Positions 1,539 to 22,500 of a stretch of 64,000 nt of DNA are shown piece by piece. The translations under genes and the position numbers were made by a program. The DNA comes from a virus. The notes under the pieces were generated by a model. It did not search any database and was not told the DNA's origin. It saw only the letters and a program-made list of their open reading frames with translations. The DNA lies in IMG/VR virus record IMGVR_UViG_3300036985_009306, positions 64,001 to 128,000 of that record. One strand, written 5' to 3'. Numbering within the stretch: the stretch's first letter is position 1; every line of letters begins with the position of its first letter.

Positions 1539-1570
1539 TTTTTTATAGTTTTTATAAAAAGAGTTTTATC

Positions 1571-1795
1571 ATGAAAAATATTTCTAAATTAGCTGAACAG
1601 ATTGTTTCAAAAACATTGACAAATTTACCTTCAATTAAGGTTGATTTTAGTACTGTTAAGAAAAAAATAGAAAAACTTGAAAAAGGGATTTCTACATTTA
1701 ATGGAGATGATTCTTCTTGGGAAACCATTGAAAACTGGAAACCATTAGCTGAAGAAATAATTCAAGATTTAGAAAGCATAATGGAGAAATTATAA
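1571..1795 (+). CDS. Hypothetical 74-aa protein (begins MKNISKLAEQIV)
   Basis: ORF track. Its stop abuts the next ATG, and the GGAG near its 3' end serves as RBS for the next gene. Confidence 0.7.
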   Translation: MKNISKLAEQIVSKTLTNLPSIKVDFSTVKKKIEKLEKGISTFNGDDSSWETIENWKPLAEEIIQDLESIMEKL

Positions 1796-1830
1796 TGCAT
1801 AAATATTCTGACAATTGTCCGTTCTGCAAA
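1795..1830 (+). repeat. MHKYS[DE]NCxxC leader repeat (copies at 1795, 3174, 3814, 4797, 7024, 40133)
   Basis: ATGCATAAATATTC is identical in all six copies, followed by Asp/Glu, AATTGT and a second Cys codon three codons later. Confidence 0.95.
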
Positions 1831-3171
1831 ATTTTTAAAGCAGATGACAAAGATAAATCTAGTTATGATAAAGAAGTACATCCAAATAATAAAAAATTTT
1901 GGAAATCTTTACCGAGCAACTCAGAACATGCTCTTGGTCGTCATCCTGTTTTTACATTAAGTGGTGAAGAGCTTGATAGAGCTTCATACAAACATACTAA
2001 AGATTTATCTGAAAAACACAAAGTAAAAGATGAAGAATTAGGCATGCTATTCCAACAAATGATAAAAAAAGAACATGCTCATAAGAAAAAACTTGAAGAA
2101 CTTGCTGTAAGTGCTGTAGCAAAAATGATGAAAGTAGACAAGAGTGAACTTGTGGCAAAACTTACTAATGAAGTTGATATTAATGAAACTGAGCCTCTTA
2201 AACCAGAAGAAATGAAAGCCTTGCCAAAGAATCTTCTTGATGAAGCAAATAAACGTATAACGAGTAATGCATTTGCACAGGGCGCATCTGTGCATGCTTA
2301 TCTAACTGCACATTTTTTTGAAGAAATACAAGATGAGATAAAGAAGATAGACCCTAAACTTGTAGATATTTATTCTAAAATTACCACAGGTTCACATAAG
2401 TTATATTGGAAACTAGATATGTCGGTTATGGGTTTGGGAAATGCTGCTGTGGGATCTGTTAGACCAAAGCAAGATAATGATGGTGATATCAAAATGGAAG
2501 CAAAAGCACCAGTGTTTATTGTTTTAGTGCAAGAACTTGTTAAAGGAGTTTTAGAATTAAAGTATTTAAAACATTTGCAACAAAAATCATCAGAGGAACT
2601 TAGTGACGATGATATTAAAAAGATATTTCAATATGCAGATAAAATTGAAGATGAGCCAAGATTGATTCAAATTGGTCCTGAGTTATGGAGGAGATTTTTG
2701 AAAGTTCTTAATAGTTCTAAAGTTAAAGGCTCTAAGTCTCCTGTAGAAGTTTATGAGCATTTGATGAAGCTTCCACCTAAAGATTTGCATAAGTTTGTTC
2801 AATTAGTAGTAGATGAGCCTGATAAAGCTCCACATGAACTCGAGTTATTACTTGAAGATGATAATAAAGTCGATCTTGAGCAATTATTAAAAGAGCTAGA
2901 GAATCCAGAAGATATAAAATTTTCTGCTGCAGGACCAATGACAGCACCGATGCCAGTTAAAACTCCAACACCTACAAAGCAGCCTTATGAAGTTCCAGGG
3001 AAAAACCCAAGAGTAATTCCATTACCACAACCTAAGAATACAGCTCCTGTTAAGACACCTGTTAAAACACCTGTTAAAACTCCAGCACCAGCAAAAGAAG
3101 TTCCTGGGCAGAAACCTCGTGTTATTCCTTTACCACAGCCCAAAAATGATTTTATTAAAAAATCAAAATAA
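1795..3171 (+). CDS. Hypothetical protein with MHKYS-CxxC leader and Pro-rich repeat tail; possible virion internal protein
   Basis: N-terminus MHKYSDNCPFCK. The core NKRITSNAFAQGASVHAY resembles a family I recall from uncultured large phages (unverified). C-terminal EVPGxxPRVIPLPQPKN x2 and PVKT repeats. Confidence 0.8.
   Translation: MHKYSDNCPFCKIFKADDKDKSSYDKEVHPNNKKFWKSLPSNSEHALGRHPVFTLSGEELDRASYKHTKDLSEKHKVKDEELGMLFQQMIKKEHAHKKKLEELAVSAVAKMMKVDKSELVAKLTNEVDINETEPLKPEEMKALPKNLLDEANKRITSNAFAQGASVHAYLTAHFFEEIQDEIKKIDPKLVDIYSKITTGSHKLYWKLDMSVMGLGNAAVGSVRPKQDNDGDIKMEAKAPVFIVLVQELVKGVLELKYLKHLQQKSSEELSDDDIKKIFQYADKIEDEPRLIQIGPELWRRFLKVLNSSKVKGSKSPVEVYEHLMKLPPKDLHKFVQLVVDEPDKAPHELELLLEDDNKVDLEQLLKELENPEDIKFSAAGPMTAPMPVKTPTPTKQPYEVPGKNPRVIPLPQPKNTAPVKTPVKTPVKTPAPAKEVPGQKPRVIPLPQPKNDFIKKSK
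2941..3147 (+). repeat. Intragenic repeats: (PVKT)n 12-bp tandem units and duplicated EVPGxxPRVIPLPQPKN
   Basis: cctgttaagaca/cctgttaaaaca/cctgttaaaact tandem units, flanked by two synonymously diverged 17-codon copies. Confidence 0.9.
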
Positions 3172-3173
3172 TT

Positions 3174-3821
3174 ATGCATAAATATTCTGAAAATTGTCCA
3201 TTTTGTAAGATTTCTGGTATAGATATGTTTGAATTAACTCCAGAAGAGAAAATAGAACTAGAAGAAATTGATAGAGAATTGGTAAAAGAAATAGATGAAA
3301 GAAAAGATAAGTCAAGAAAATTAAGAAAAGAAAACCAAGAGATATTAAAAAAACAAAAAGAAATTTTATTGACACAAGGCATTGCATTAACTGCTGAAAA
3401 CAAAACTGACCATAAAATTAATAGTATTTATAGTTTTTCAATAGATTTAAAAAGCCCATTTGCAATAGAGATTTCTTATTTTAGAAGAATATATAATGTT
3501 GCGCATTATGATGAAATAAAAAGAGAATTTTTAGACAAATTAAATTTTAAAATGTTAGATGAATATGAGTATCTTGATACAAAAGCAAGATCTCAATGTA
3601 GACATGCTGAAATGATTAATGTAAGTTTTTTAAAAACTTGTAGAAAATTAGGTGAATTTTTAAAAAGATTTTTTAAAACCAAACAAGATACAAGATATAA
3701 GATTTATGAAGTACACATTCTTGATACAAGACTTGGTATGGTAAAAGAATATGTAAGTTTTGTTGAGCAAATAGAAAAGATTTTGGAAAAAATAAAACAG
3801 GACAAAAAACAAAATGCATAA
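3174..3821 (+). CDS. MHKYS-leader paralog family member 1
   Basis: Starts MHKYSENCPFCK..FELTPEEK. Shares LDKLxxKMLDEYEYLDT with 3814 and 4755. Confidence 0.8.
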   Translation: MHKYSENCPFCKISGIDMFELTPEEKIELEEIDRELVKEIDERKDKSRKLRKENQEILKKQKEILLTQGIALTAENKTDHKINSIYSFSIDLKSPFAIEISYFRRIYNVAHYDEIKREFLDKLNFKMLDEYEYLDTKARSQCRHAEMINVSFLKTCRKLGEFLKRFFKTKQDTRYKIYEVHILDTRLGMVKEYVSFVEQIEKILEKIKQDKKQNA

Positions 3822-4758
3822 ATATTCAGATAATTGTTTGTTATGTAAAGTGTATTCAAATATTGACACTTTTGAACTTACATCTGAAGATAAAGTCAAG
3901 TTAAAAGAAGCACTTAATGATCTTAAAAAACAAGAAGATGATGTATTAGAAGTATGGAAAAAAATTAAAAAACAAAATGATGAAGATTTGAAAAAAATGG
4001 AAGAGATTTTGTCTAAAGTAACTAAAAGAATTCCAGAAACAAGAGCAACTTATTTTGATGTTAAGTATTTTTATGAGAAACCTTCAAAAGAAGTTTTAGA
4101 CAAGTTAGAACCTAAAATGCTAGATGAATATGATCATCTTGATACAAGAACTGAAGCTCAAGTAAAAAAGATAAGCAAAACTGATCTTTTTAAAACAATG
4201 AATTTAGAAAAAATTAAAGATTTTTTAAAAGATTTATTTAAAACAAAAATTACTGTAACAAGAGATCAGCTACATAATGTAGAAAGTTTGAATTTTAAAC
4301 ATAAAGGCAGACTTTATAAAGTTTTTTTAACAGAAACAATTTTTGTAAAGTCCTGGATTGATTTTAAAACTTCGTTAAAAGATGAAGATGATGTTTTAGA
4401 TCAAATAGAAGAAATTTTAAAAACTATTAGATCAAGAGAAAAGGTTAAGACTCATTATGATATTTTTAAAGATCTTAAGTTTACAGAAATTATAAACAAA
4501 TATGATTTAAAAGTTGATAAGAAAAAAGAAGGAACTTTCATTTTAAGAATAAATGAGCGTTCAGGTGAAAGAATAACCCTATCAGATACAGGTAGATTAA
4601 GGTATTATAGAGATAAGTATGATGAATATGCAAGACTTCTTATGACTCTTACAAGAAGTGATGAAGAAAATTTTACAAAAAAAATGTATTATGAGTTTTT
4701 AGATAAAATTGATTCTTTTCTTACGAAACAAAAAAAGAACAAAGAAAAAACAAAATGA
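3814..4758 (+). CDS. MHKYS-leader paralog family member 2
   Basis: Starts MHKYSDNCLLCK..FELTSEDK. Shares KEVLDKLEPKMLDEYDHLD and KYDLKV...SxTGxLRYYxD with 4755. Confidence 0.8.
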   Translation: MHKYSDNCLLCKVYSNIDTFELTSEDKVKLKEALNDLKKQEDDVLEVWKKIKKQNDEDLKKMEEILSKVTKRIPETRATYFDVKYFYEKPSKEVLDKLEPKMLDEYDHLDTRTEAQVKKISKTDLFKTMNLEKIKDFLKDLFKTKITVTRDQLHNVESLNFKHKGRLYKVFLTETIFVKSWIDFKTSLKDEDDVLDQIEEILKTIRSREKVKTHYDIFKDLKFTEIINKYDLKVDKKKEGTFILRINERSGERITLSDTGRLRYYRDKYDEYARLLMTLTRSDEENFTKKMYYEFLDKIDSFLTKQKKNKEKTK

Positions 4759-5672
4759 ACATACTTAATTTTGTTTTAAGAGAAAGCAAACCTTATATGC
4801 ATAAATATTCTGACAATTGTCCATTTTGTAAGATTTACTCAGGATTAGACACATTTGAACTTACACCAGAAGAGAAATCAAAATTATTAGAAATTGATAA
4901 AGATTTTAAAAAACAAGATGAAGAATATGTTTCTGTTATAGATAAATATAAAATTTCTAATGATGAAGATTTAAAAAGAATAAAAGAAATTTTGTTAGAA
5001 GTTACTGATAATTTACCTAAAATTGATTATTTAGTCACTTTAGGTAAAGATGGCAAGATAGAATATATTAATGAAGAGCTTAAAAAAGAAGTTTTAGATA
5101 AATTAGATCCTAAAAAACTTGAAGAATATGAATATCTTGATGCAAGAACCAGATCTAGATATAAAAAAGCTAAAGACATAACAATTGATTTTTCAAAAAC
5201 AATTAATTTTTTAAAAATTGTAAGCAAACTTGAATCATTTTTAAAAGATGATCTTAAGTTAAAAATTAATAAAAGTTTTGACAATTTTATTTATGATTAT
5301 GGAAATAAAACATATCATATATTTTTGGGTTTTAAACAAGATATTTATCAACAAGTGGAAAAAAATCTTAAGACTATGAAGAAAAAAAATGAAAAAAAGG
5401 TTACTAATAAAATTGTTGATGACCCTAAATTTAAACAAATTGTTGAAAAATATGATTTAAAAGTTCATTTTAAAACCAAGGGTGGATTTACTTTGACTGT
5501 AGATGAAGGAACGGGTGAAAAATATGATGTTTCAAGTACTGGAAATTTAAGATATTATAATGACAGATACTCTCAAGGAAGTCTTATTCTTAGTTCAAAT
5601 GACAATATTAAGATTTTAGATAAAATTGATGAAAATATAACTAAGAGAAGAAAAAAAATGGAGAAGAAATGA
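4755..5672 (+). CDS. MHKYS-leader paralog family member 3, preceded by MNILNFVLRE leader
   Basis: Starts MNILNFVLRESKPY-MHKYSDNCPFCK. Paralogous to 3814 along most of its length. Confidence 0.8.
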   Translation: MNILNFVLRESKPYMHKYSDNCPFCKIYSGLDTFELTPEEKSKLLEIDKDFKKQDEEYVSVIDKYKISNDEDLKRIKEILLEVTDNLPKIDYLVTLGKDGKIEYINEELKKEVLDKLDPKKLEEYEYLDARTRSRYKKAKDITIDFSKTINFLKIVSKLESFLKDDLKLKINKSFDNFIYDYGNKTYHIFLGFKQDIYQQVEKNLKTMKKKNEKKVTNKIVDDPKFKQIVEKYDLKVHFKTKGGFTLTVDEGTGEKYDVSSTGNLRYYNDRYSQGSLILSSNDNIKILDKIDENITKRRKKMEKK

Positions 5673-7021
5673 ATATACTTAATTTTGTCTTAAGAGAAGC
5701 ACATATTGAGAAATGGGCGCTGTTGCAACAGCAACAGTTAGACAATATGGTGCATCAAGTTTTTGCTAAATATAAAGAAAAATTGATAAACAAAAAACCT
5801 GATGACACGTATTTTCTACATCATTCTTATACAGATTATGTTAAAGAATTAAAGAAGCCTTATTTTGAATATGCTAAAAAGTTTAATGAACATGTAGTTA
5901 AGAAGTTAACAATTGATTTTAAAAACGAAAAATTGCTTTTAATTTGGTTATTAGAACAAGTTGTCACAAACCAAATAAAAGCTGTTTCAATTGATGAAGA
6001 TGTTGATGTAATTAAAAACAATTTACATCTTTATTTTGAAAATAAAGGAAAAATTCATAAAAACATATTTGATTCTACATATAATGACCTTAAAAAATGG
6101 GTTGTACCTTATCAACCTAAAGGTGAAGAAAGCAAGCATAAAAAATTTTTAAGCAAACCTTATATTGAGGGAAAAGAATACAAAATTTATAAAATAACAA
6201 AAGTTGATGAGTGTGTAAAGATAAGCAAAGGAACATCATGGTGTACTCAAGGCATAGCAAATGCTGAGTCTTATCTTAAAAAAGGTCCATTGTGGTTAGT
6301 GACAAAAAATGATAAAAGATTTGCTTTGATAAGTTTTGAGTCTGGTTCTTACATGGATGTTAATGATCAGAGGCTAAAACCTGAAGTTGTATTTGAAATT
6401 TTTGATATTTGGCCAGAAGCTGAAAAGAAATTGATTGAAAATTTGAAGGGTAATAGTTATTCAATAAAGTTTTTAAGAAATCTAAGTGAAGAACAACAAC
6501 TTGAGATGATGCCAAAGGAACCTGATGTTTTTCAACATTTATATAAACCAACTGAAAAAGTAATAAATAAAGCTGTTAAAGAAGATGGTTCTAATATTCA
6601 ATATGTCAAGAATCCTTCAAAAGAACTTCAAGAAGAAGCAATTAAGCAAGATGCAGATAACATTGAAAGAATAGATCATATAGATCCTGAAATTGAAAAA
6701 AGACTTATAGATATTAATCCAGATGCAATAAAACATATGAAAAATCCTTCTGAGGAAACTCAAGAAAAAGTTGTCAGGTTACATGGATTAGCAATTAAAC
6801 ATATCAAAGATCCATCTGAAAAGGTTAAATTATTAGCTGTAAAACAAAATGGTAAAGCAATTAGACATTTAAAAGATCCTTCTGTTGAAGTTCAAATGGC
6901 AGCTGTTAATAATAAATGGCATTCTCTTGCTTATATTAAAAATCCAGATAAAAAAGTAATAGAAAGAGCAATAGAGATTGATCCAAGAGCTGAAGAATTT
7001 GTTGACATGAAAGCAATTTAA
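5669..7021 (+). CDS. MNILNFVLRE-leader protein with GTxWC domain and C-terminal helical repeats (DUF4116-like)
   Basis: Central motif ISKGTSWCTQG...YLKKGPLW. About 7 repeats of the type AVKQNGKAIRHLKDPSVEVQMA. Confidence 0.75.
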   Translation: MNILNFVLREAHIEKWALLQQQQLDNMVHQVFAKYKEKLINKKPDDTYFLHHSYTDYVKELKKPYFEYAKKFNEHVVKKLTIDFKNEKLLLIWLLEQVVTNQIKAVSIDEDVDVIKNNLHLYFENKGKIHKNIFDSTYNDLKKWVVPYQPKGEESKHKKFLSKPYIEGKEYKIYKITKVDECVKISKGTSWCTQGIANAESYLKKGPLWLVTKNDKRFALISFESGSYMDVNDQRLKPEVVFEIFDIWPEAEKKLIENLKGNSYSIKFLRNLSEEQQLEMMPKEPDVFQHLYKPTEKVINKAVKEDGSNIQYVKNPSKELQEEAIKQDADNIERIDHIDPEIEKRLIDINPDAIKHMKNPSEETQEKVVRLHGLAIKHIKDPSEKVKLLAVKQNGKAIRHLKDPSVEVQMAAVNNKWHSLAYIKNPDKKVIERAIEIDPRAEEFVDMKAI

Positions 7022-7023
7022 TT

Positions 7024-7206
7024 ATGCATAAATATTCAGACAATTGTTTACTTTGTAAGATATATTCAAGTGCTAATACATTTGAATTAACTCCAGAAGA
7101 AAAAATAGAGTTAGAAGAAAGTGATAAAGAATTAGAAAAAGAAATAACAGAAAGAAAAAATAAATTAACAAAATCTGAATTAAAAGAACTTCTTCAAATA
7201 GAATAA
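7024..7206 (+). CDS. Short (60-aa) MHKYS-leader paralog, possibly truncated remnant
   Basis: MHKYSDNCLLCKIYSS..TFELTPEEKIELEE closely matches the N-termini of 3174/3814/4755, then stops. Confidence 0.6.
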   Translation: MHKYSDNCLLCKIYSSANTFELTPEEKIELEESDKELEKEITERKNKLTKSELKELLQIE

Positions 7207-7220
7207 ATTCTATTTTTATC

Positions 7221-7280
7221 AAGACTACATCTTCAAGATGCTCATAGACCTGGTAGTCAAGGGAGAGCATCTCAAATTCC
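7221..7280 (+). ncRNA. Putative structured cis-RNA element, copy 1 (pseudoknot/switch); strand inferred
   Basis: GACTAC(7223-28) pairs with GTAGTC(7253-58), and AGATGCTC(7236-43) with GAGCATCT(7265-72), in a-b-a'-b' order. Aligns with the copy at 22352. Confidence 0.65.
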
Positions 7281-7317
7281 TCTTTATTTCTAAAAAATTT
7301 ATAAAAAGTAATAAGTC

Positions 7318-7848
7318 ATGGCCACAACAGCTGTACAAAGTCCAGTACCCATTTCCTGGAGCATTAAAGGAGCTGCAAATGTTCCTCCTTTAACAATGCT
7401 TATTAACCCAGCAAATTTAGACATAACTTATACTCCCTTAATCACAGAAACTAGAACTCTTGGCGGTTTTGTCCATGAATACTGGGGTGAACAATTAACT
7501 TCTCTTTCAGCCTCAGGAAAAACTGCAATGTTTATAGATAGAACTCAAGGTCTAACAAATGATACAAGATCTACAGAATCATATCAATACTTCATGTCTT
7601 TATTAAATATCTATAAAAACAATGGGAAAGGATACACTACAGATTTTTCTACAGATACAATTCCTGCTTTTAGAGCAAATCCTACAAAAATAGCAAGTCT
7701 TGGTATTGTATCTATGGTATTTGACAAAAGACACTATGATGGTTACTTTGAATCTTTTTCATATACAGAAGAAGCTGCAATGCCATTTAATCTTGACTAC
7801 AATTTTGTATTTAGAGCAATGCGAATTATAGGACAATTAACTGTTTGA
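7318..7848 (+). CDS. Putative tail tube initiator / baseplate-proximal protein (paralog A)
   Basis: LTMLINPANLDITY...GGFVHEYWGEQLTSLSASG motif. Position between tape measure and hub. Confidence 0.6.
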   Translation: MATTAVQSPVPISWSIKGAANVPPLTMLINPANLDITYTPLITETRTLGGFVHEYWGEQLTSLSASGKTAMFIDRTQGLTNDTRSTESYQYFMSLLNIYKNNGKGYTTDFSTDTIPAFRANPTKIASLGIVSMVFDKRHYDGYFESFSYTEEAAMPFNLDYNFVFRAMRIIGQLTV

Positions 7849-7855
7849 GGAGAAC

Positions 7856-8443
7856 ATGTCTCTTTACACCAATACAAGTTCTAGGAGATACAATAGCAAG
7901 CCTATGGTGTTTGATTTGAATATTGAGTCACCACCTCCTTCATTGACATTGCTTATTAATCCAGCAAATTTAGAAATTAAATATACACCTAAGTTAACTG
8001 AACAGAGAGTAAGATGGGCTGGAACAAGTCCAGGATACATATTTCATGTTCATCATGATGAACTAGATGTTTTGTCTGCTTCAGGAAAGTCTGCTATGTT
8101 TATGTCAGATCATGGTTTAACTAGAACTAATAGAACAGATACATTGGCATATGAGAATATAGAAACATTGGTTGCTTTTTATAGGAATAATGGCTCTAAT
8201 TTTAATCCAAAGTCAAATTCAACTACAAATCCTGCAATGATAAATTCCGTTGGAAGGGTTACGATAACATATAATGGATTTTTATACAAGGGTCATTTTA
8301 TAAGTTTTACATGTACAGAGAGTGATTCGAGTCCATTTAATGTTGATTTTTCTTTTGATTTTAAGGTAACAAGAACATTTGATGTCGGTCAAGTTGGTTC
8401 AAATTTCACAGCAAATTTTACACCTTTTTCGAGTCCATCATGA
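7856..8443 (+). CDS. Putative tail tube initiator / baseplate-proximal protein (paralog B)
   Basis: LTLLINPANLEIKY...LSASGKSAMF...YxNNG, paralogous to 7318. Has GAGGAG RBS. Confidence 0.6.
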   Translation: MSLYTNTSSRRYNSKPMVFDLNIESPPPSLTLLINPANLEIKYTPKLTEQRVRWAGTSPGYIFHVHHDELDVLSASGKSAMFMSDHGLTRTNRTDTLAYENIETLVAFYRNNGSNFNPKSNSTTNPAMINSVGRVTITYNGFLYKGHFISFTCTESDSSPFNVDFSFDFKVTRTFDVGQVGSNFTANFTPFSSPS

Positions 8444-10677
8444 ATAATAGAGTTCTAGGTGACGGTCAGAATGTATTGAATCCGGGTTATAGACAACCTG
8501 AGACAGTTCAGTTGGCACCAGATGCATTAGTGTTTATTAATGGGTCAAATATGATGCAAGATCCTGAAGGTAAAGTATTTGACATCAGACAGGATATAAC
8601 AGATATAGAAACAAGTTTGTCAACAGAACAACAGGGAACAGCAGGTTTCACAATTTCTTATCCATCTACATCAGGAGGTAGAGAAGGTCAGTCTAAATAT
8701 AAGAATTTGTTGATAATGTCTGAAGTTATGATTTACTTTAGAGGTCGTTTTTTAAAGAAGAGTCAATCTACACAACAAAAGCAGTTTGTTGGGCCTCAAC
8801 TTCAAGTTGTTCCGCCAGAAGGACCTATAATATATCCATATTATCAGGCATTTTGGGGAATTATTACTTCTATAACAGAGAATTATAATGACGGGGTAAA
8901 TACAATTTCTGTTTCATGTGCAGATATTTTGAGATGGTGGCAAATTACAAATATTACAGTTAATCCTTCTCTTCTTTCTTCTGTAGATAGTCTTAAAAGA
9001 TTTTTGACAAAAAATTATGGTGTGAGTAAGACAGATTTTGCTTTGCTTGAAAAAGGTTTGAAATCAAAAGATGGTGCAGGAAGAGGGGTTTCTTTATTTT
9101 CTACAATTTTTTCAAATAAGACTATTCCAGAAATTTTTGAAGCATGTTGTAATCTTTCTTTACTTCAGATGTCTCCACTTAATGATTATCTTGTTACAGG
9201 ATCTGTTGCTGTTGAAATAGGACAAAAAATACGAGCTGAGATTGATAAAGGACAAATGAATTATTGGCGAGAACGACTTCAACAAGTAGGAAGAAATTTA
9301 AAAATTTATGGATTGAAAAAAGATACTAGAAAAGGTTCGGAAACATTAGGCAAATGGATTATTGATCCTACACAATTAATTACTTATCCTACATTAGAAA
9401 AGACTAAACAATTACAAGATATAGGGAATATAAATACTTTTTATCAGATGTTTCCAGCTGCTCCATCTATAGCAAAAAGCGATAGAAAGAGTCAGTATGA
9501 AATAGCAAATGAGGTAAAAGAAGGAATTGGTTTTGAATTTTTTATGGATGTTAACGGTGAAATTGTATTAAAAATGCCATTCTATAACTTAAATGTAAGT
9601 CAAAATATAAATTCGGTTATTCATGATATAGATATACTAAGTTGGAGTTTTGTTCAAAGTGAATCTGAAGTTGTAACAAGAATCGATGTAACAGGTGCGA
9701 TGGCTAATATATCTGATGGCGGGCATGGTGCTCCTACAGGAATTGCATATAGTCCTTTATTAACTCTTCAATATGGAGAACGAGAACAACAACGTCATAT
9801 GCCATGGCTACGCAATCCTAAACAATGTGAATTTTGGGGAAAAGTTGAATTAGCAAGAGCAAATGCTTTAGTCAGACAAGGAAGTATTTCTATTATAGGA
9901 AGACCGGAACTTAGACTCGGGTATCCAGTTTATATTCCATCAAGAGATGCTTTTTACTATGTCAAAGGAATTGAACATAGATTTAGTTTTGGTGGAAATT
10001 TTTCTACTACTTTAACTGTAGTAGCAGAAAGATCTAAAGGTAAATCTTTAACTCTTTTTAAGAATGTAGGCGGATTAACAGATGAACAAGTTACTACACC
10101 AGGAACATCTATTGCTGAATCTAATACGACAAATAATTTTGTGACACAGCTTTCTATGCCATCAGTTTGTACTCCAAGAGCAAAGGAGCATGTGTCTGTA
10201 GTCAAACCAAATTTTGCAATTGATTTATCTCAGATATCTTCAATGCCTTTTGGGGATTGGCAGCTGTCAACAGGACAGGAAGTAGATCCTACTTCTGCAA
10301 CAGGACAATTTCAAGTTACAGATGCCGATGGATATGAATTAATGGGACAAATGGGTGCTGAACCTTATATTAGTTATGGCTATGGTTTACGATTTTCGGC
10401 TAATAGCACTATTGATCAACCTCTTTCAAATGCGTTATCCTCAAAAGCAGCAATAGGTGCAGCACAAGCACTTAAGTTAAAAGTAGAAAACAATTCTCTT
10501 GTAATTAATCCGAACAATGTTGCTTGGACATTGGATTCTGAAGCAAGTCAGGGTGCCAAGATGATAGATTCTGGTGATACTGGTCCTGCAAATAATGCTG
10601 CAAAAGCACAAAAACTTTCACCTGATTCTGTTATTCCTGAAGGATTTACAGGTTCTTTGGGAGCAGCAATTCCTTAA
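8440..10677 (+). CDS. Baseplate hub protein (T4 gp27 / P2 gpD-like)
   Basis: FEFFMDVNGEIVLK, GSISIIGRPELRLGYPVY, YYVKGIEHRFS..FSTTLTV hub signatures. Confidence 0.75.
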   Translation: MNNRVLGDGQNVLNPGYRQPETVQLAPDALVFINGSNMMQDPEGKVFDIRQDITDIETSLSTEQQGTAGFTISYPSTSGGREGQSKYKNLLIMSEVMIYFRGRFLKKSQSTQQKQFVGPQLQVVPPEGPIIYPYYQAFWGIITSITENYNDGVNTISVSCADILRWWQITNITVNPSLLSSVDSLKRFLTKNYGVSKTDFALLEKGLKSKDGAGRGVSLFSTIFSNKTIPEIFEACCNLSLLQMSPLNDYLVTGSVAVEIGQKIRAEIDKGQMNYWRERLQQVGRNLKIYGLKKDTRKGSETLGKWIIDPTQLITYPTLEKTKQLQDIGNINTFYQMFPAAPSIAKSDRKSQYEIANEVKEGIGFEFFMDVNGEIVLKMPFYNLNVSQNINSVIHDIDILSWSFVQSESEVVTRIDVTGAMANISDGGHGAPTGIAYSPLLTLQYGEREQQRHMPWLRNPKQCEFWGKVELARANALVRQGSISIIGRPELRLGYPVYIPSRDAFYYVKGIEHRFSFGGNFSTTLTVVAERSKGKSLTLFKNVGGLTDEQVTTPGTSIAESNTTNNFVTQLSMPSVCTPRAKEHVSVVKPNFAIDLSQISSMPFGDWQLSTGQEVDPTSATGQFQVTDADGYELMGQMGAEPYISYGYGLRFSANSTIDQPLSNALSSKAAIGAAQALKLKVENNSLVINPNNVAWTLDSEASQGAKMIDSGDTGPANNAAKAQKLSPDSVIPEGFTGSLGAAIP

Positions 10678-10695
10678 CTCACTTAGGAAAATTAA

Positions 10696-12789
10696 ATGCC
10701 TCATCAACTACCATTAAGATCTGGTGAAGATCCTTACAGAGGTAAAGAAGTTGATATAACTAAATACACAAGATTGGGTTATATCACTAGAGTTGACTAT
10801 GAGACTGGTTATGTTGACATCACTTGGTTAGAAGGTAGAGGTTTTACTCCTTTTGTTCGCTTGCCTCTATCACATGCTTCTTTAAGAAGCACTATCCGTG
10901 GAATGCCAGAAGTAGGAAGCGTTGTGATTTGCGGGTGGTCTCGTCAATCACAAACTTGGGAGGATCCTGTTATCCTTGGTTTCACAGATTTTAGTCTAGA
11001 GACCTTACTAGAATATAGGCTTCTTAGAAATGACAAAACTTCACAAGCATTAACAGACATAGCGACAATTCGAGAAAAAATAGGCTACAATGTAATCAGA
11101 GGAAAACGTAGAAAAATATATCCTGGTGAAATTCAAATAGAATCATCTCCAGGAGCTGAACTATATCTTGATGAAGATGTCTATCTCTCAGACAGCAAAC
11201 TTAATGAAATAGAAATAAGATCAGCTGATAAATCTATTCGTTTATCCTCTAATCAGATTTATACTCTTACTCAAGCTTCTCGTACTTGGAATGGATTAGT
11301 TGCTAGAGAACCTGGTGATTTAAAATTTAATTTTCAACCAACAACACTTCCTAATGGTCAAAAAGTACAATTTGTCACTGATTCAAATAATCCATTACAT
11401 GTCGGCGGTCAAGCATTTACAGAACATAGAATTGAAATGTATGAAACATCTAATGGCATAATGAAAGCTTCTGAAGTTAATGCCGGTTATGATGTAAATG
11501 CTCAACAGCCTTTTTTGACTTATGTTTTGGGAACATTAGTCGGTAATGATAAAACTGATATAGCAAAGTATGCTAAAGTATTAAGACCTCAAATTTTTGG
11601 GATACCTTTTGCATCTGAAGTTTCTTTAGATTATCTAGAATGTACTCCAGAAGAATATTCAAAACTTTCATCTGCTGTAAGTCTTAAATTGTTGTCTAGA
11701 GCAAGAATAGATATTGACAAAGAAGGGCATCTTTTTACTTTCTTTCCTGCATCATCTGGTGCACATTCTTTAGGAGCAGGAAGAAGTTGGGAAGGTGCAT
11801 TTGAAGGTGCAGTAAAACTTCTTTTGGGTGCTGACAATGTAGACAATAAATCTTTGTATTTAGACACTAAAGGTGGCATTAAAGCTACTTTGGGTTATGA
11901 TAGAGAAGGAAAAAGTAGCAATATTGTAGCACAAAAAGGAATGTATGTAGAAGTAATCGCTCCGGGTAATGATGGCAATTCTTATTATTTAAAAACAAAG
12001 GGTCCATATAAAGGTTTAATAGATGGACCTTATAATTTAGAAGTTACAGGTGATTATAATGTTGTAGTTCATGGAAAATATATTGTACAATCTTTGGGAA
12101 CAAGAGAAGAGAGTTTTGTCAATGACAAAAACAATATGTATGGTGGATCTTATAAAAAGATTGTTATAAAAGATAAACAAGAGCAAATAGGTTATAATAG
12201 AGATACACGAATAACAGGTAGTTTAGAAAGAGCTCCTGGAATTTTTACTCCAGCATTGCCTTCTCAAATTACAGATGGTTTGTTGTTGACCACAGGTACT
12301 AGAGATGAAAAGTATCTGAACGGGAATTTAAAGAGAACAATTCTTTTGGGAGATGAACATGATACGATTGTTAAAGGAAATATGGTTGAAGATCTTACAT
12401 TGGGTGACAAGACTACAAGTGTTAAGGTCGGAAATATTAATCAGAACATCATTAACGGATCTTCAACAGAAGCAATCGTAAATGGATCAAAAAAAATTTC
12501 TATTAAGAGTGGTTCATTTGTAGTAGAAATTGTTGCAGGTGATGTGCAAGTGAAGACAAGTTTGGGCGCAATTAAAATTAATTCAATAGCACAAACAGTT
12601 GATATAAATGGTGCGTTAGTAGTTACAATCAAGAGTGGGGTTAAATTAAATTTGTCAGGACCTCTTGTACAAATTGGGTCGCTTCCAGCTGTCGGCGGGG
12701 TCGTCACGGGCCTTCCGACACCTACACATCTCGATTTCGTCGTAGGATTGCCATTGCTTGCAAGCAAGACAGTAAGTGCATCTATGTAG
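10696..12789 (+). CDS. Baseplate central spike (gp5/gpV-like; OB fold plus beta-helix)
   Basis: N-terminal GYITRVDYETGYVDI...RGMPEVGSVVICG (OB-fold-like). Repetitive Gly/Val/Ile beta-strand repeats toward the C-terminus. His near the tip (THLDFVVG). Follows the hub gene. Confidence 0.75.
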   Translation: MPHQLPLRSGEDPYRGKEVDITKYTRLGYITRVDYETGYVDITWLEGRGFTPFVRLPLSHASLRSTIRGMPEVGSVVICGWSRQSQTWEDPVILGFTDFSLETLLEYRLLRNDKTSQALTDIATIREKIGYNVIRGKRRKIYPGEIQIESSPGAELYLDEDVYLSDSKLNEIEIRSADKSIRLSSNQIYTLTQASRTWNGLVAREPGDLKFNFQPTTLPNGQKVQFVTDSNNPLHVGGQAFTEHRIEMYETSNGIMKASEVNAGYDVNAQQPFLTYVLGTLVGNDKTDIAKYAKVLRPQIFGIPFASEVSLDYLECTPEEYSKLSSAVSLKLLSRARIDIDKEGHLFTFFPASSGAHSLGAGRSWEGAFEGAVKLLLGADNVDNKSLYLDTKGGIKATLGYDREGKSSNIVAQKGMYVEVIAPGNDGNSYYLKTKGPYKGLIDGPYNLEVTGDYNVVVHGKYIVQSLGTREESFVNDKNNMYGGSYKKIVIKDKQEQIGYNRDTRITGSLERAPGIFTPALPSQITDGLLLTTGTRDEKYLNGNLKRTILLGDEHDTIVKGNMVEDLTLGDKTTSVKVGNINQNIINGSSTEAIVNGSKKISIKSGSFVVEIVAGDVQVKTSLGAIKINSIAQTVDINGALVVTIKSGVKLNLSGPLVQIGSLPAVGGVVTGLPTPTHLDFVVGLPLLASKTVSASM

Positions 12790-13442: not shown

Positions 13443-16400
13443 ATGAGCACACTCTTAACACAATCTGATCAGAATATTCTTGAAGATTCTAAACAAAACA
13501 CACAAGATCAGAATCAGTCTATTCAACAATCATCTGTTACTATTACTACAGAGATAGCAAGTTTACTTTTAGTTGATGTACCTTTTAAGAAACAATTAGA
13601 TCCAATTCATGTCAATATTTTTGCATTTGAAGAAGAGTTAAGAAGATTAAATGGAACTTCTATAATTCAACCATTGCAAGAAAAAGGTTTTACAATTTCT
13701 GACACATCATCTAATTTTGCCCGTCTTTATATTAATAATGGAAGATTAATAATAACAGAAAATACAATTCTTCCAGTATCTGTTGTTCTTACTATAGATG
13801 TAGGTTTAAAAATTTTAAATGTTGGTCCAAGTTTATCATTATCTGTTGGACAATTTATTGTTATTGCTTATGATTTTTATAATCAAATGCAAGGTGAAAT
13901 TGTTGCTTATAATTCTTCTACAGGCTCACTTTCTGTAAATGTTATTACGATTACTGGATCGGGAACATATTCTACTTGGAGCATATACACGCAGATATTT
14001 AATGGACCATTGTTTCCTATGAGAGGATATAGTAGATCTCGATTTGCAGGAACTCAACAGACAGGAACAATCACAAATCTTAGTACAACTATTTCAGGAT
14101 TAACATCAACTGCAAAACTAAGATCAACAGGAATAATAAAGACAGCAGGAAGTTTTGTGATTGGAGCAAATTATATAATTGTGTTCATTGGATCTACAGA
14201 TTTTACTTTAATTGGTGCTAGTTCAAATGCTGTAGGAGTAACTTTTACAGCAACTGGAGTTGGTTCAGGTACAGGAACAGCAACTACAAATCCAGGTCAA
14301 TTTGTAAGTGGAACAGGAATCCCGAAAAATGCTTTTATTATGAGTATAGCTAGTTCTACAAGCATAATAATATCTCAACCGTGTACAACAAGTGGTTCTA
14401 TAACTATAACTTTTGGTTCAGATTTTGATATCTGGTCAAGAGATCGTTATGGTGCAACAACTTCATCAAAACAAACAGGTTCACCTTATATAATAGACAA
14501 ATATCATAAAAAACTTAAAGTAACATTTGATGGTGTAACTACTGTTGAAATAGATTTGTCTAATTTGATAAGCATTGATCAAGTAGATGAAGTGGTTATT
14601 TCAAATACATTAGGGACAGAGACCGCCGTTCAATTAAAATATTTTCCTGTAATTTCTTCTACTGATTCTATTTCTTTGTCTTTAAGTTCATTTGTACTTA
14701 TTGATAAAGCACAATATATGGTAGATTATAATACAGGAATTATTACGTTTTTGCAGGCTATTCGATCTGGTTTCAAGATGACCGCTGATTATGAGAATTT
14801 GGATGGAACTTATAGTGAAACAGTTTTTGAAAATACTACAGGTGCAGAAACTGTAGCTCAGTTAACACATATTCCTATGTTTGGATCTATAGTAACTCTT
14901 ACAACAACATTTATTACTATCAATTTAGTAAGAGGAACTGATTATAATATTGATTATTCTACGGGATATGTGACACTTCTTACACCAATAGTAGATAATG
15001 TCCAAATGTTAGCCTCATATGAAAATTCAGCGAATGTTTTACCTTCTTCATTGGCATCTTCAATTCAATTGTTGATTCAGAATTCTGATCCTTCATTAGA
15101 AAAGATTGCATGTGTTTTTAATATATCTATTAATACTTTTACAATAATATCTGGTTCTGGACCGTCTGCTTCTGTTCAGGTAGTTCCTTGTTCTGATTTA
15201 ATAGTTGGAGAGATTGATTTGATGAATTATTTGGGCTTTGATCAACAGTTTATGATTCAAGGAAAGTATCAAAACAATCTCTTAAATGTTGCAATAGATG
15301 CTACTCTTGCAGGAAATTTTGTTGTAGATGCTAAATATACAATTGTATCAATTGGAACAACAGATTTTACTTCAATAGGAGCAAGTTCAAATACAGTAGG
15401 TCTTATTTTTACGGCAACAGGAATGGGTTCGGGAACAGGTGTTGCTGCAACTTCAAGTCAAATAAGTGAGATCAAGATATCAGATTTCAGGAGATGTTTT
15501 CAAGATGCTAATCTAGGGTATGATAATGATGATCTCGGGTATGACTGGTCAGGTGGTTTAGATAAGCCTCTTGGTTATATAGGGGCAAATAAAGTAGGCC
15601 CTCTATTTTGTTCTGGCATATCAAACGGGAAGGATGTTGCAAAGTCAATAGAAGCACAACTTAGGATGGTAGGATCTGGTGGTTTTATAAATGCTAAAGT
15701 ATCTTATTTTACGAGAGATAATATTTTTATTATCTATAGTGGAACTATGGGTCCAAATTCATCTGTTCATGTTATTCCTGCATCTGATTCTGATAGAGAT
15801 GCAATGAATCTAGTTGGTTATGTGTTTCCTCCTGTTTTTCCAGAAGAAGAAAGAGGAAATGAACAATATTATAATACTTTAAGAGATCTTTATGATAAGC
15901 TAGCAACAGTATCTCATATTCAAGTTTCTGGTTTGAATAATCCATCGACATTGAGTCATTCAATTTTGTATCAACAACTTAATGGTGTTAATATTAGTTC
16001 TAGTTTTAATGATAATGTAGATCTTACTACGACTCTTATTTATGATTATGGATCAAGAGGTTTACCAAGGCTTTATCCTAATGGAAAACTAGTCATAGAT
16101 AGTAGTAATAATATGATTAATTTTTTTGAAACAACTGATATAGAACTTGCTGTAACTATAGCATCAGGTACATATACCAGTGAACATGATGTAGCAACTG
16201 TTATTCAGAGCGCCCTTGGTTCTGGGTATACTTGTACTTATAGTTCTCAACAGAAGAAGTTTACAATTGCAAAAAATACAGGAAGTTTTGGATTGTTGTT
16301 TCAAACAGGCGCAAATGCTTTAACAGGTATTGGTAATTATATAGGTTTTAACACAAGTGATAAGACACTAGCAACTTCATTTACATCTGATTTTCAAGTA

Positions 16401-19400
16401 ACTTTTCAGATGACAGATTATTTTAATCCTTTTTTGCCAAATCAATTTGATGGGGCTCCTAAAGCACCTGATTATACTGTTGATGAATATTCTGCATTAT
16501 TATATGAGCAATTAATTTTGGGATTAGAAAGTCCTATATTGGTTGCATTGCAAAATGAACTTACTCTTAACAATAATGAAGTTTTATTAGATGGATGGGA
16601 AAGTATTGCAAATATAGAATTTTTTAAGACACAACAAGAAGACACTGCTTTAAGATATCAAAAAGGTGCATATGTAAGTCATATTAGCGAAAATGATTCT
16701 GTTACAACAAATATAGATACAGCTTTAGCAAATTTAACCCCTAATTTTAATAATTTGACTTCATTAGAAACGCATATTTTATTGCACTCTCATGCGGCAA
16801 TATTAAATCTAACTCAATATTTACAATCATTTTCTGTTTCGCCTGTTACGATAGTTGCAGGAGCAGGTTCTAAGATTTACAACAATCCTCCTATATTAGT
16901 TTCTTATGAAAATGTTTTAAAACAAATTACTGGTAGATGGAATCTACCTTATCTATTTTGTTCATCTACAACTTTTACGCCCGATATTGTAATATCTACT
17001 CTTACAAATAATAGAGATGGTGTTGAAGGATATAGTTATTCAGGGCAAACACCAAGTGGATCATTTTTTATTACTGACGACACTAATGCTGTTGTGACAG
17101 GAACTACAACAGGACCATTTGATTTGTCTGTTTCTAATACTTTATTATTTGAAATTGATGGAGGAGGTGCTCAAACTGCAGAAGCTACTGCAACAGCAGG
17201 GTATACGCAAAGTAGATCTGCTGCTACATCAGGGTTTGTTATTAAAGCAAATACAAATGATTGGATAGATTTTAAAGAAGCTATAACAGAATTACATGCT
17301 CAAATTTCACCAGGAGTTTATGATGTTGCAAGTTTGACAACTGAAATACAAAACAAAATGAATGCAGCAGGAACTTATATATATTCTGTTTCTTATGCAG
17401 CAAATACTTTTGCTATAACAACAACATCTATTTTTCAATTGTTATTTCTTACTGGAGTTCATAATTCGACAAGTATTGCTTATACAATGGGGTACAGTAT
17501 TTTAGATCATTCTGGATCTTTAGTTTATATTGCAGAAGGTTTTTCAATATTTCCTGTCATTACTGGAGTAAATGATACTTTTATTACTTCGATTAATGGG
17601 AGTTCTAGTTCAATAGTCACAATTTCTCAGGGAAGATATAATTCATCTGGTTTGATAATTGAGATGACAAACAAAATTGGTTTACAAATTCCAGTCGGAC
17701 AATTTAACATAACATATTCTTCAGATTTGTTTGTAATTACTTCTACAATTCGAGGTACTGTATCTGTAGTGGAAGTTTATGAAGGGACAAATGATTTTCT
17801 TAGAACAATAAAATTGGATGCCGATGTTCCAGTTCATGGTACGGGTAATGTAGCAAATGTTGCTACAGTTTCTGTAGATGAATTTGTAAGTATTTTAAGC
17901 GTATTGTCTGGGTTTACTGTTTCAAATAGTTCTAATCATATAAAAATGCAAACAAATTCAATATTAGGTTCTTTAAGTTCGATTGAATTCACAGGTGGAT
18001 CGGCTATAGCTATTCTTGGATTTGTTGTAGGAACAACAACAGGTATAGATGCCAACAATAGATTGAAGGTTGATATAGATGGTGATTTGTCTAAACCGGA
18101 CATAATATTAACTACAGGTACTCTTACTGGTTCACAGATTGCGTCTGATATTCAGACAAAACTTCAGGTGATTGGTAGTGGAGGATATGCTGCATCTATA
18201 TGTACTTGGAATGAGACGACTGTATGGGCTAGTTTTACTAATGCTTTTAGAATTGTATCAGGAACAAGAGGAATTTCTTCTACAGTAAATGTAAGTAGTG
18301 GTTCAGCAATTCCGGTGTTGAAGTTTGATACTCAGACTATAGTGAATGGACAAATTGTTGTTGATATACAAGCAACTTTAGATAGTACAAGTTTTAAATC
18401 AGTTTTGTCATTAGGTAATTCAACGACTAGAATGGATTTGAATTTTAATATTGCTGTTGCTCCATATAATAAAGTTGTCAATTTAGTTGATGCAATTAAT
18501 ACATCACCTTTTTATTCTGATGCTACTTTGACTAAAGCAAATTTAATTTCTAGAATAGCTGAACCATATAGAATAGAAAATGTTGATACTTTAATTGTTA
18601 CTGCAAATGGTGAAGCACCGCAGACTTTAACTTTTCATGCAGTTCATGGAACATCTGTTTCAGGAAGTGGCGGTCATACAAGAATTTATAGTTCTAATAA
18701 TAGAATAGGGATTAGTTTAAATGGTTATACTAGAATTGAGATCACAATTGGAGCTCAACTTTCTGCTTATGATATTGCAATAAATATTCAATTACAGGTA
18801 AGATCAATTATAGTACCAAATGATAGTGAATTGCAAGCTGCATATTCTCAATTTACTTGTAGTTATGTAGGAACAAGGTATTATTTAACTTCTGGGACTG
18901 GAGGAACAGGATCATCTGTTGTAATTACAGATGCATTATCAAACAATGCTGCAGTAGATTTGAAACTTGGTGTTATGAATGGAGGATATGAAGATCCAGG
19001 TTCAGGTAATTTTGTAAATAGTTCTTTTGTTACTAAATCTGAGTTAGAATCCATAATATATGGATCAGGTTTTGAATGTGATTTGACAAGTGATGATTAT
19101 TTGAAGATTCAAAGTTCTACTACTGATGATACTTCTAGAATTCAGATAGCAGGTACAGCAAAATCTAAATTAGGTTTTGATTTAAATGATGATTCTTATC
19201 CTTCTTCAGATTTTAGCAATCTAGATACTTCACAACTTATGCAATTTGCAGATCAAAGCATTATGTCTCCCATAATGTATAAAGTTAGAATTGGATTTTT
19301 ATCTGGATTAGGTAGCATTAATGTCACTTATTATACTACAGATAATTCTCAAATTACTGCAAGATTACCTATAATTTCTAGTAGGTTACCTACAATTCCT

Positions 19401-19616
19401 GCAAGGTTAGCTCAGATAACTGCAAGGGCTAATACAATTGTCAGTGCATTGACTCCTACTCTTTATAATTCTAGAAAGAGTCCTGTGACTGTACGTTCAA
19501 ATAAAAAGACAGGAAGTTATGTGCAAGTAGGAAATAAACTTAATCAACAAGATAATAATCAGAGTGCAATAAGTACTAATAATGGTCTTATATCTACAAT
19601 AAACTCTATGTTGTAA
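13443..19616 (+). CDS. Very large (2057-aa) modular baseplate/tail-associated structural protein
   Basis: Ser/Thr/Gly-rich beta composition with several repeated modules (AGxFV..., SGTxGxxSSVxV, DYxxTGxxT). Lies in the baseplate block with GGAG RBS. Confidence 0.8.
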   Translation: MSTLLTQSDQNILEDSKQNTQDQNQSIQQSSVTITTEIASLLLVDVPFKKQLDPIHVNIFAFEEELRRLNGTSIIQPLQEKGFTISDTSSNFARLYINNGRLIITENTILPVSVVLTIDVGLKILNVGPSLSLSVGQFIVIAYDFYNQMQGEIVAYNSSTGSLSVNVITITGSGTYSTWSIYTQIFNGPLFPMRGYSRSRFAGTQQTGTITNLSTTISGLTSTAKLRSTGIIKTAGSFVIGANYIIVFIGSTDFTLIGASSNAVGVTFTATGVGSGTGTATTNPGQFVSGTGIPKNAFIMSIASSTSIIISQPCTTSGSITITFGSDFDIWSRDRYGATTSSKQTGSPYIIDKYHKKLKVTFDGVTTVEIDLSNLISIDQVDEVVISNTLGTETAVQLKYFPVISSTDSISLSLSSFVLIDKAQYMVDYNTGIITFLQAIRSGFKMTADYENLDGTYSETVFENTTGAETVAQLTHIPMFGSIVTLTTTFITINLVRGTDYNIDYSTGYVTLLTPIVDNVQMLASYENSANVLPSSLASSIQLLIQNSDPSLEKIACVFNISINTFTIISGSGPSASVQVVPCSDLIVGEIDLMNYLGFDQQFMIQGKYQNNLLNVAIDATLAGNFVVDAKYTIVSIGTTDFTSIGASSNTVGLIFTATGMGSGTGVAATSSQISEIKISDFRRCFQDANLGYDNDDLGYDWSGGLDKPLGYIGANKVGPLFCSGISNGKDVAKSIEAQLRMVGSGGFINAKVSYFTRDNIFIIYSGTMGPNSSVHVIPASDSDRDAMNLVGYVFPPVFPEEERGNEQYYNTLRDLYDKLATVSHIQVSGLNNPSTLSHSILYQQLNGVNISSSFNDNVDLTTTLIYDYGSRGLPRLYPNGKLVIDSSNNMINFFETTDIELAVTIASGTYTSEHDVATVIQSALGSGYTCTYSSQQKKFTIAKNTGSFGLLFQTGANALTGIGNYIGFNTSDKTLATSFTSDFQVTFQMTDYFNPFLPNQFDGAPKAPDYTVDEYSALLYEQLILGLESPILVALQNELTLNNNEVLLDGWESIANIEFFKTQQEDTALRYQKGAYVSHISENDSVTTNIDTALANLTPNFNNLTSLETHILLHSHAAILNLTQYLQSFSVSPVTIVAGAGSKIYNNPPILVSYENVLKQITGRWNLPYLFCSSTTFTPDIVISTLTNNRDGVEGYSYSGQTPSGSFFITDDTNAVVTGTTTGPFDLSVSNTLLFEIDGGGAQTAEATATAGYTQSRSAATSGFVIKANTNDWIDFKEAITELHAQISPGVYDVASLTTEIQNKMNAAGTYIYSVSYAANTFAITTTSIFQLLFLTGVHNSTSIAYTMGYSILDHSGSLVYIAEGFSIFPVITGVNDTFITSINGSSSSIVTISQGRYNSSGLIIEMTNKIGLQIPVGQFNITYSSDLFVITSTIRGTVSVVEVYEGTNDFLRTIKLDADVPVHGTGNVANVATVSVDEFVSILSVLSGFTVSNSSNHIKMQTNSILGSLSSIEFTGGSAIAILGFVVGTTTGIDANNRLKVDIDGDLSKPDIILTTGTLTGSQIASDIQTKLQVIGSGGYAASICTWNETTVWASFTNAFRIVSGTRGISSTVNVSSGSAIPVLKFDTQTIVNGQIVVDIQATLDSTSFKSVLSLGNSTTRMDLNFNIAVAPYNKVVNLVDAINTSPFYSDATLTKANLISRIAEPYRIENVDTLIVTANGEAPQTLTFHAVHGTSVSGSGGHTRIYSSNNRIGISLNGYTRIEITIGAQLSAYDIAINIQLQVRSIIVPNDSELQAAYSQFTCSYVGTRYYLTSGTGGTGSSVVITDALSNNAAVDLKLGVMNGGYEDPGSGNFVNSSFVTKSELESIIYGSGFECDLTSDDYLKIQSSTTDDTSRIQIAGTAKSKLGFDLNDDSYPSSDFSNLDTSQLMQFADQSIMSPIMYKVRIGFLSGLGSINVTYYTTDNSQITARLPIISSRLPTIPARLAQITARANTIVSALTPTLYNSRKSPVTVRSNKKTGSYVQVGNKLNQQDNNQSAISTNNGLISTINSML

Positions 19617-22309: not shown

Positions 22310-22351
22310 CTTTTTCTATAGTTTTTATTTATTTCTAAATTATACACCATT

Positions 22352-22415: not shown

Positions 22416-22500
22416 TTTTTTCTATAATTTTTATAGTTATGTATAAATAGACACAATCCCATTAATTGTTAATCAATTATAAACAAAAGGATTTGTTAAC

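Follow-up and report, generated by a model that had tools for sequence, protein, structure and literature searches.

A kink-turn RNA element with a clade-specific pseudoknot ahead of tail genes of uncultured jumbo phages: a putative protein-bound leader

The DNA analysed here (the window) is a stretch of 64,000 nucleotides, bases 64001-128000 of a 192,143-bp virus record (IMG/VR IMGVR_UViG_3300036985_009306; 31% G+C). The record is about 97% complete and its + strand carries nearly all of the genes. A previous reading of the window without database searches (the sequence-only reading) had described a two-copy intergenic element, and both copies are indeed found, with the sequences it gave, at 7221-7290 and 22352-22421. 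The 5' signature of the element, AAGACTAC-N0-4-ATCTTC, occurs twice in the window where 0.01 occurrences are expected by chance, and the only exact matches to GTAGTCRAGGGAGA in the window are at the two copy sites. Outside the window, 4 kb upstream of its start, there is a third and more divergent copy (genome 59836-59890; L004:9836-9890), which like the other two is intergenic and on the + strand. It was detected both by an nhmmer profile of the two window copies and by a covariance model. A search of the whole genome gave no copies beyond these three, and a generic descriptor of k-turn hairpins remains at background level throughout the genome apart from the true copies. A weak model match (23 bits, E ~0.01) at window positions 29757-29811, inside an ORF of 2417 aa, is devoid of the 3' half of the fold and was judged to have arisen by chance.

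Coordinates of the features in the window are collected in the table. The insertion that ends next to copy 1 contains paralogues that all begin with MHKYS(D/E)NCxxC (repeat family D4). It separates a gene ending in ...NDNRVINLYVNQNDRKQIEQIVLNAIYTDKM from the gene for the 176-aa protein; in related phages these two genes abut with no element between them. The insertion was recognised from the C-terminus of a 509-aa ORF ending at 1538, which matches the gene that abuts the 176-aa orthologue in the relatives. By this comparison copy 1 is lineage-specific, an element of the copy 2 type placed at exactly the junction made by the 5.7-kb insertion. Copy 2 and the 173-aa gene are followed by baseplate genes (phrog_43, phrog_6 and Baseplate_J), and in one contig copies of the element are present ahead of two further late genes. 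Two giant ORFs also occupy the window, at 13443-19616 (2057 aa) and 28187-35440 (2417 aa). They share internal repeat families (D1-D3 and D6-D10), including a module with ...YYTTDGSDP..., and probably represent tail fibres or adhesins built from repeated domains.

Features of the two element copies and their surroundings (window positions; helix and kink-turn assignments are predictions)
Feature	Positions	Strand	Remarks
Lineage-specific 5.7-kb insertion: 74-aa ORF and MHKYS(D/E)NC paralogue cluster	1539-7206	+	Copy 1 at its 3' end
Copy 1, helix a 5' strand GACUAC	7223-7228	+	Pairs with 7253-7258; covaries in relatives
Copy 1, pyrimidine-rich linker AUCUUCA	7229-7235	+	CUUC/CCUC-type tract just 5' of helix b in most of the 37 members
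Copy 1, helix b 5' strand AGAUGCUC (kink-turn C stem)	7236-7243	+	Pairs with 7265-7272
Copy 1, kink-turn bulge AUA (L1-L3) and G1b A2b	7244-7248	+	A-U-W and GA invariant in alignments A7, A10 and A11
Copy 1, helix c (CCU/AGG, NC stem) around loop GGUAGUCA	7249-7262	+	Loop holds the helix a 3' strand (7253-7258)
Copy 1, kink-turn G2n A1n and helix b 3' strand GAGCAUCU	7263-7272	+	
Gene downstream of copy 1	7318-7848	+	176 aa; no family match
Box TTTCTATAGTTTTTAT upstream of copy 2	22313-22329	+	Recurs at 6 intergenic + strand sites in the genome
Copy 2, helix a 5' strand GACUACA	22354-22360	+	Pairs with 22388-22394
Copy 2, kink-turn hairpin	22370-22408	+	Model R1: 75.7 bits, E 2e-14
Copy 2, stem b strands	b5' 22370-22377; b3' 22401-22408	+	
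Copy 2, bulge AUU and the two GA steps	AUU 22378-22380; GA 22381-22382; GA 22399-22400	+	
Copy 2, helix c	c5' CCUU 22383-22386; loop 22387-22394; c3' GAGG 22395-22398	+	
Box TTTCTATAATTTTTAT directly downstream of copy 2	22419-22435	+	
Gene downstream of copy 2 ('type B')	22501-23022	+	173 aa, MAFNFLGTLS...; orthologues in relatives have the element upstream

The most constant neighbour of the element across phages is the gene downstream of it that encodes a protein of 440-490 aa (467 aa in this genome, downstream of copy 3; L004:9933-11336, genome 59933-61336). This protein belongs to no Pfam or PHROG family. Its N-terminal 100 or so residues may resemble a tail assembly chaperone. The evidence from structural modelling is weak but concordant: a Foldseek match to HK97 gpG (2ob9; probability 0.99, E 0.24) obtained with an AlphaFold model of pLDDT 65, with which the Atlas leads agree. 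The C-terminal part is long and helical. A profile match to eL8/L7a raised the question of an L7Ae-type identity and was dismissed: it reaches only E 0.07 and aligns a charged helical stretch, there is no L7Ae match in Pfam, and the AlphaFold model is helical in this region.

To gather homologues, the proteins flanking the copies were used to reach related uncultured phage contigs of 15-424 kb. With a model restricted to helix b (R1), each of the larger relatives yields two significant copies, and a contig of 71 kb with four copies came from a pattern scan of IMG/VR. Alignments of the two downstream proteins led to more distant phages among viral contigs; that of the 467-aa protein was also scanned against metagenomes and brought in additional ones. 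After a structural parse there are 37 distinct members from related uncultured jumbo-phage contigs, every one of them in intergenic DNA and on the gene-sense strand. The sequence-only reading had proposed a covariance model search; this recovered the third copy as well as homologues with covariation. The source metagenomes are from sediment, sludge and digesters, and none of the phages has been cultured. GenBank phages contain no DNA match to window positions 7000-12000 and no protein match to the 467-aa protein, which has no relative in GTDB genomes either. The baseplate protein has only remote matches among cultured or GenBank phages, and their genomes (LR745208 and Tunturi_5) do not carry the element.

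As had been suggested, the element lies at junctions of the late (tail/baseplate) region and is a structured RNA that had gone unrecognised. The 64-kb window gives no matches to Rfam 15 at the gathering thresholds. With permissive filters applied to both loci, no known family is recognised even at E<=10, the best scores being 9-18 bits (E 0.5-8.5) against thresholds of 41-114 bits. The families that remain below threshold include SAM-I, c-di-GMP-II and preQ1, and at E<=10 there is no similarity to the hammerhead, twister, twister-sister, pistol, hatchet or HDV-like models. The element represents a new family of RNA that Rfam does not contain, assembled from known modules (a k-turn and a loop pseudoknot) in a new setting.

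Three covarying helices, a kink-turn signature and the strand polarity establish the element, at the level of comparative sequence analysis, as a sense-strand RNA of about 55-60 nt. Its strands follow the order a5'-b5'-c5'-a3'-c3'-b3', an interleaved arrangement that defines an H-type pseudoknot. The sequence-only reading had proposed helices a and b and their interleaving, and covariation throughout the family supports both; helix b also shows the two exchanges of G-C for A-U between the window copies that it described. Helix b (the lower or C stem) has 8 bp. Helix c (the upper or NC stem) has 3-6 bp, is paired in 98-100% of cases and occurs in several versions (CCU/AGG, CCUU/GAGG, CUCUG/CAGAG, CUAUG/CAUAG, CCGAG/CUCGG and CCAAG/CUUGG). 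Helix a is a pairing of 6-8 bp between the terminal loop (7-9 nt) and the 5' tail, which leaves 0-3 bases of the loop unpaired on each side. This loop-to-tail geometry is that of kissing loops. At least eight different complementary sequence pairs are found in helix a (for example, AAUCAUCU/AGAUGAUU in L138 and CUACAC/GUGUAG in L145).

Two alignments quantify the covariation. In A7 (16 sequences; helices a, b and c) 94.3% of cells are paired, compared with 28-56% in slid controls, and the covariation score is 0.473, compared with 0.229 after shuffling (none of 500 shuffles as high). Changes on both sides are seen for 11 of the 18 pairs, including three of four in helix c, and helix a is 92.7% paired. 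A11 (30 sequences; helices b and c) takes in the hairpin-only forms described below, and the model used to align it, R2, was an independent one. Here 93.9% of cells are paired (slid controls 40-55%) and the score is 0.534 compared with 0.239 for shuffled alignments, again with none of 500 as high; both sides change in 7/10 pairs of helix b and 2/3 pairs of helix c. G.U pairs outnumber A.C combinations by 22 to 6 and, therefore, the folded strand is the gene-sense (+) RNA.

Between helices b and c, a 3-nt bulge (A-U-W) and GA on the 5' strand face GA on the 3' strand, which is the signature of a standard kink-turn. The sequence rules for this motif predict helix b as the C stem, the bulge as L1-L3, the two GA steps as the tandem G.A/A.G pairs and helix c as the NC stem, which continues with base pairs from 3b.3n onward. 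In the 37 members the bulge following stem b is always exactly 3 nt long (AUU in 22, AUA in 12, AUC in two and AUG in one). GA follows the bulge in all of them and precedes the 3' strand of stem b in 35; the remaining two (L142:612-663 and L139:175-225) have AA. The corresponding 2n=A is a rare non-standard variant of the k-turn, known from Kt-23 of Thelohania (T. solenopsae) (PMC3985660). Invariant positions are the C-G pair at -1b.-1n, U-A at -2, L1 A, L2 U, the G.A/A.G pairs and C-G at 3b.3n. This statement rests on the model-based alignments and not on the parse, because the structural regular expression itself imposes TCATNGAC. The segments TCATWGACCT and AGGGAGA, described previously as conserved and unpaired, are in fact the strands of the kink-turn together with helix c, which had been overlooked.

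The 3b.3n pair is informative. In variants of Kt-7, on which the rule was established, a Watson-Crick pair at this position prevents folding in metal ions alone; such pairs are typical of the protein-bound U4 k-turn and are present in 0.1% of SAM-I k-turns (PMC4382518). Since the element always has C-G here, the type reported to be unable to fold in Mg2+ alone, a protein partner appears likely. Tertiary contacts can, however, stabilise the kink in place of a protein, as they do in SAM-I (PMC3651934). Helix a could provide such a contact, and this counts against a protein-docking role. The sharp bend (an included angle of roughly 50 degrees in k-turns; PMC5061560) would let stem b fold back along helices c and a, which may explain how a pyrimidine-rich linker of only 4-11 nt joins a5' to b5'.

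More distant relatives, in which the neighbouring 467-aa protein is 24-31% identical, have at the same locus only the kink-turn hairpin, without the pseudoknot. In this form a G+C-rich stem b of 8-11 bp carries the same bulge, GA and C-G core, followed by a stem c of 3-5 bp and a variable loop of 3-5 nt (GAAA, UAAU, ACA and others). As these relatives retain nothing but the kink-turn hairpin, the kink-turn would be the conserved part of the element, and not a ligand pocket. Stem b is also flanked, in both forms, by a CU-rich tract immediately on the 5' side and a pyrimidine-rich tail on the 3' side. Together with the common core, this argues that the k-turn is ancestral and the pseudoknot a clade-specific elaboration.

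The flanking CU-rich tracts (AUYCCYC or CUUC upstream, UUUCUUCC or CUCUCC downstream) lie around the purine-rich GGGAGAG strand of the k-turn. They are of low complexity and might either pair with this strand or bind a pyrimidine-tract protein. A major-groove triplex between the CU-rich linker and the purine runs was considered and is excluded by strand polarity and connectivity. The first 8 nt after stem b contain 0-6 T residues, mostly 1-3, in the pseudoknot members and 3-6 in the hairpin-only relatives; about half of the latter have a U-run immediately after the hairpin, resembling an intrinsic terminator.

The sequence-only reading saw in the element an attenuator or switch with mutually exclusive folds. 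One of its alternative hairpins, CATCT/AGATG, does form in the two window copies (-2.9 and -2.7 kcal/mol), but in 35 relatives its energy is about 0 kcal/mol, as in shuffled sequences. The other, GGGAG/CTTCC, is appreciable in copy 2 only, and in most of 22 sequences it is no better than in shuffles. Because the alternative hairpins fold no better than shuffled controls in the relatives, mutually exclusive folds are not a property of the family. Nor is there a conserved expression platform, and the switch proposal is left without support. The suggestion of termination at a T tract fares similarly: a terminator scan finds no intrinsic terminator after either window copy.

The arrangement of the element relative to genes also bears on function. 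All 18 pseudoknot members upstream of the chaperone-like gene ('type A') have a strong terminator-like hairpin 0-10 nt upstream, of variable sequence and -10 to -22 kcal/mol, followed by UUCUUC-like pyrimidines (L004:9789-9832 in this genome; equivalents in L087, L089-L092, L094, L130-L139, L142, L143, L145 and L146). It may serve to terminate the upstream gene, or it may be part of the motif itself, as its 5' hairpin. On the other side, the 65-nt model match stops 24-35 nt short of the start codon, which is about 40-45 nt from stem b; the spacer holds a normal Shine-Dalgarno sequence. Given the upstream terminator-like hairpin and the short spacer, transcripts of the chaperone-like gene would have to contain the element. 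In general the element ends 35-95 nt before start codons, and simple occlusion of the ribosome-binding site is therefore disfavoured.

Several other short signals were noted in the same intergenic regions. A box TTTTCTAT-NN-TTTTTAT flanks copy 2 on both sides and is also present in intergenic + strand DNA at genome positions 14820, 15963, 22653 and 28819 (L005/L006), usually 60-85 nt before an ORF. It may be a U-rich leader element acting at the RNA level and not a promoter, since in relatives the distance from it to the downstream ATG of the 173-aa gene is only about 15 nt. A similar U-rich tract (UUCUA..UUUUU) follows most members of the pseudoknot type. A T4-type late promoter, TATAAATA, was rejected as a general signal as it is present in only three intergenic gaps.

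We propose that the element is a protein-bound, cis-regulatory kink-turn leader of tail-morphogenesis gene clusters, with the pseudoknot as a clade-specific feature. We give this interpretation, which is drawn from comparative data, a probability of roughly 0.45. The element would be transcribed within the leader or an intercistronic region of these clusters, and the kink-turn would be its conserved functional core and the docking site for a protein. Candidates for the latter are a member of the L7Ae family in the host, for example YbxF/YlxQ, or a phage protein. Binding could control how strongly the downstream tail genes are expressed, by way of translation, mRNA stability or processing, or read-through, and the pseudoknot may pre-organise or gate the bent form. 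Recognition by a protein is the most economical reading because the hairpin-only forms keep the invariant core with no visible tertiary partner. No L7Ae-family domain (PF01248) is detectable in this phage or in five related phage records. A more specific proposal, which we regard as rather doubtful, is that the element is the operator of a kink-turn-binding regulator, either a non-L7Ae phage protein (possibly the chaperone-like protein acting autogenously) or a hijacked host protein of the YbxF/YlxQ type, and that it couples tail synthesis to assembly or to late transcription.

Among the alternatives, the one that survives best, although we consider it unlikely, is that the element terminates the upstream transcription unit or stabilises its 3' end, with the kink-turn modulating termination or protecting that end and the link with the downstream gene being incidental. 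The hairpin-only stems would suit this role, being G+C-rich, 8-11 bp long and of -16 to -22 kcal/mol, with pyrimidine-rich tails that in several cases start with U4-U8 right after the stem (L096, L098, L099 and L095); in L099 there is, in addition, a sigma-70-like TTGTAA-17-TATACT between the hairpin and the gene. In the window copies and most pseudoknot members, however, no U-run directly follows stem b, in line with the negative terminator scan. A second terminator would also be redundant in the 18 type A members, where the element lies beyond 3' ends already terminated, because the separate terminator-like hairpin is immediately upstream. Moreover, the ordinary terminators of this phage do without any kink-turn, and the kink-turn nucleotides, which are unnecessary for termination, stay invariant down to 24-31% protein identity. 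As regards the hairpin-only forms, a -10 box in front of them was discounted, as the discriminator-like CU-rich tract lies inside the RNA in the pseudoknot forms.

It is distinctly improbable, in our view, that the RNA works without a protein, either by processive antitermination on RNA polymerase (as do HK022 put and the Bacillus EAR element) or as a small-ligand riboswitch with a SAM-I-like pocket. In favour of this, the element is at the head of very long late operons (with genes of 2057 and 2417 aa), the loop pseudoknot enabled by a kink-turn mirrors the SAM-I P2 arm (PMC3651934, PMC4316175), and the PF01248 search found no binder gene. Beyond the kink-turn and the CU-rich linker, however, there are no conserved unpaired nucleotides that could form a pocket, nor a conserved expression platform, and a C-G pair at 3b.3n is almost never found in riboswitch k-turns. 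A small-molecule riboswitch is unlikely because the hairpin-only relatives have loops of 3-5 nt that vary freely and could not bind a ligand in the same way. A kink-turn recognised by a protein is a better reading than a small-molecule riboswitch.

Small ribozymes are common in phage late regions, and the element might be an RNA processing site, whether a self-cleaving ribozyme of a new class or an endonuclease site that separates cistrons, with the hairpin guarding the 3' end and the pseudoknot the 5' end. We give this little credence. It would account for the tandem of a stable hairpin and the element in all type A pseudoknot members, but the known ribozyme models in Rfam show no similarity, no conserved nucleotides apart from the kink-turn resemble a catalytic core, and the hairpin-only forms are too simple for catalysis. 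That the signal operates in DNA (as a phage promoter, a single-stranded DNA hairpin promoter or a protein-binding inverted repeat), with the RNA structure irrelevant, is hardly credible: the element is intergenic and ahead of late genes, ATTGAC is similar to a -35 hexamer and promoter-like boxes flank copy 2, but the varying third bulge base destroys TTGAC in 15/37 members and thereby rules it out as a -35 box, no -10 lies at a fixed distance, and three interleaved compensating helices, the excess of G.U over A.C and the asymmetric GA/GA steps point to single-stranded sense RNA.

Kink-turns are well understood as RNA building blocks, and pairs of L7Ae and k-turns are widely used in synthetic biology. 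To our knowledge, natural control of bacterial or phage genes by k-turns is barely documented. If the operator proposal were true, the element would be the first gene switch based on a kink-turn to be described for a bacteriophage, and in the pseudoknot form nature would have turned a protein-dependent k-turn into one stabilised by a tertiary contact. The two natural forms, with their common invariant Watson-Crick 3b.3n pair, offer a ready test of the published folding rules, and the element can serve as bait for a new k-turn-binding protein. Within a deep-branching clade of uncultured jumbo phages it marks where tail-assembly gene clusters start, and its compact covariance model can be used to annotate the starts of late operons in this group.

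In its setting the element resembles lambda nut/boxB, HK022 put and the pseudoknot in the T4 gene 32 leader, which are small structured RNAs that head phage operons, occur in several copies per genome and act in cis, as the element may. There is no similarity in sequence or structure to any of these and none has a kink-turn; their functions are known from experiment, whereas that of the element is deduced. The motif itself corresponds to the standard kink-turn (Kt-7 type, in the Lilley nomenclature) in its C stem, 3-nt bulge, tandem G.A/A.G, NC stem and strand order, and in C-G at -1b.-1n. It differs from Kt-7 at 3b.3n, which is always a Watson-Crick C-G in the element and A.G in Kt-7, so that no folding in Mg2+ alone is predicted (PMC4382518), and the invariant L1=A and L2=U exceed what the motif itself requires. 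The P2 arm of SAM-I (RF00162) has the same type of kink-turn hairpin, with a pseudoknot between its terminal loop and a single strand some distance away (PMC3651934); the element has neither the four-way junction nor the SAM-binding core, and its pseudoknot partner is 5' of the hairpin. Protein-dependent k-turns (the U4 snRNA 5' stem-loop and box C/D RNAs) are simple hairpins of the same kind, with a Watson-Crick 3b.3n and predicted to be unfolded until bound. The element differs from these in the lack of the box C/D consensus RUGAUGA/CUGA, in that no L7Ae-family gene was found in the phages, and in its position in the leaders of phage tail genes. There are precedents for k-turn recognition in other settings: archaeal L7Ae binds k-turns in the 5'-UTRs of mRNAs and exerts post-transcriptional control (PMC5539422) and, in Bacillota, the YbxF homologue OapC binds the k-turn of OLE RNA (PMC9723947).
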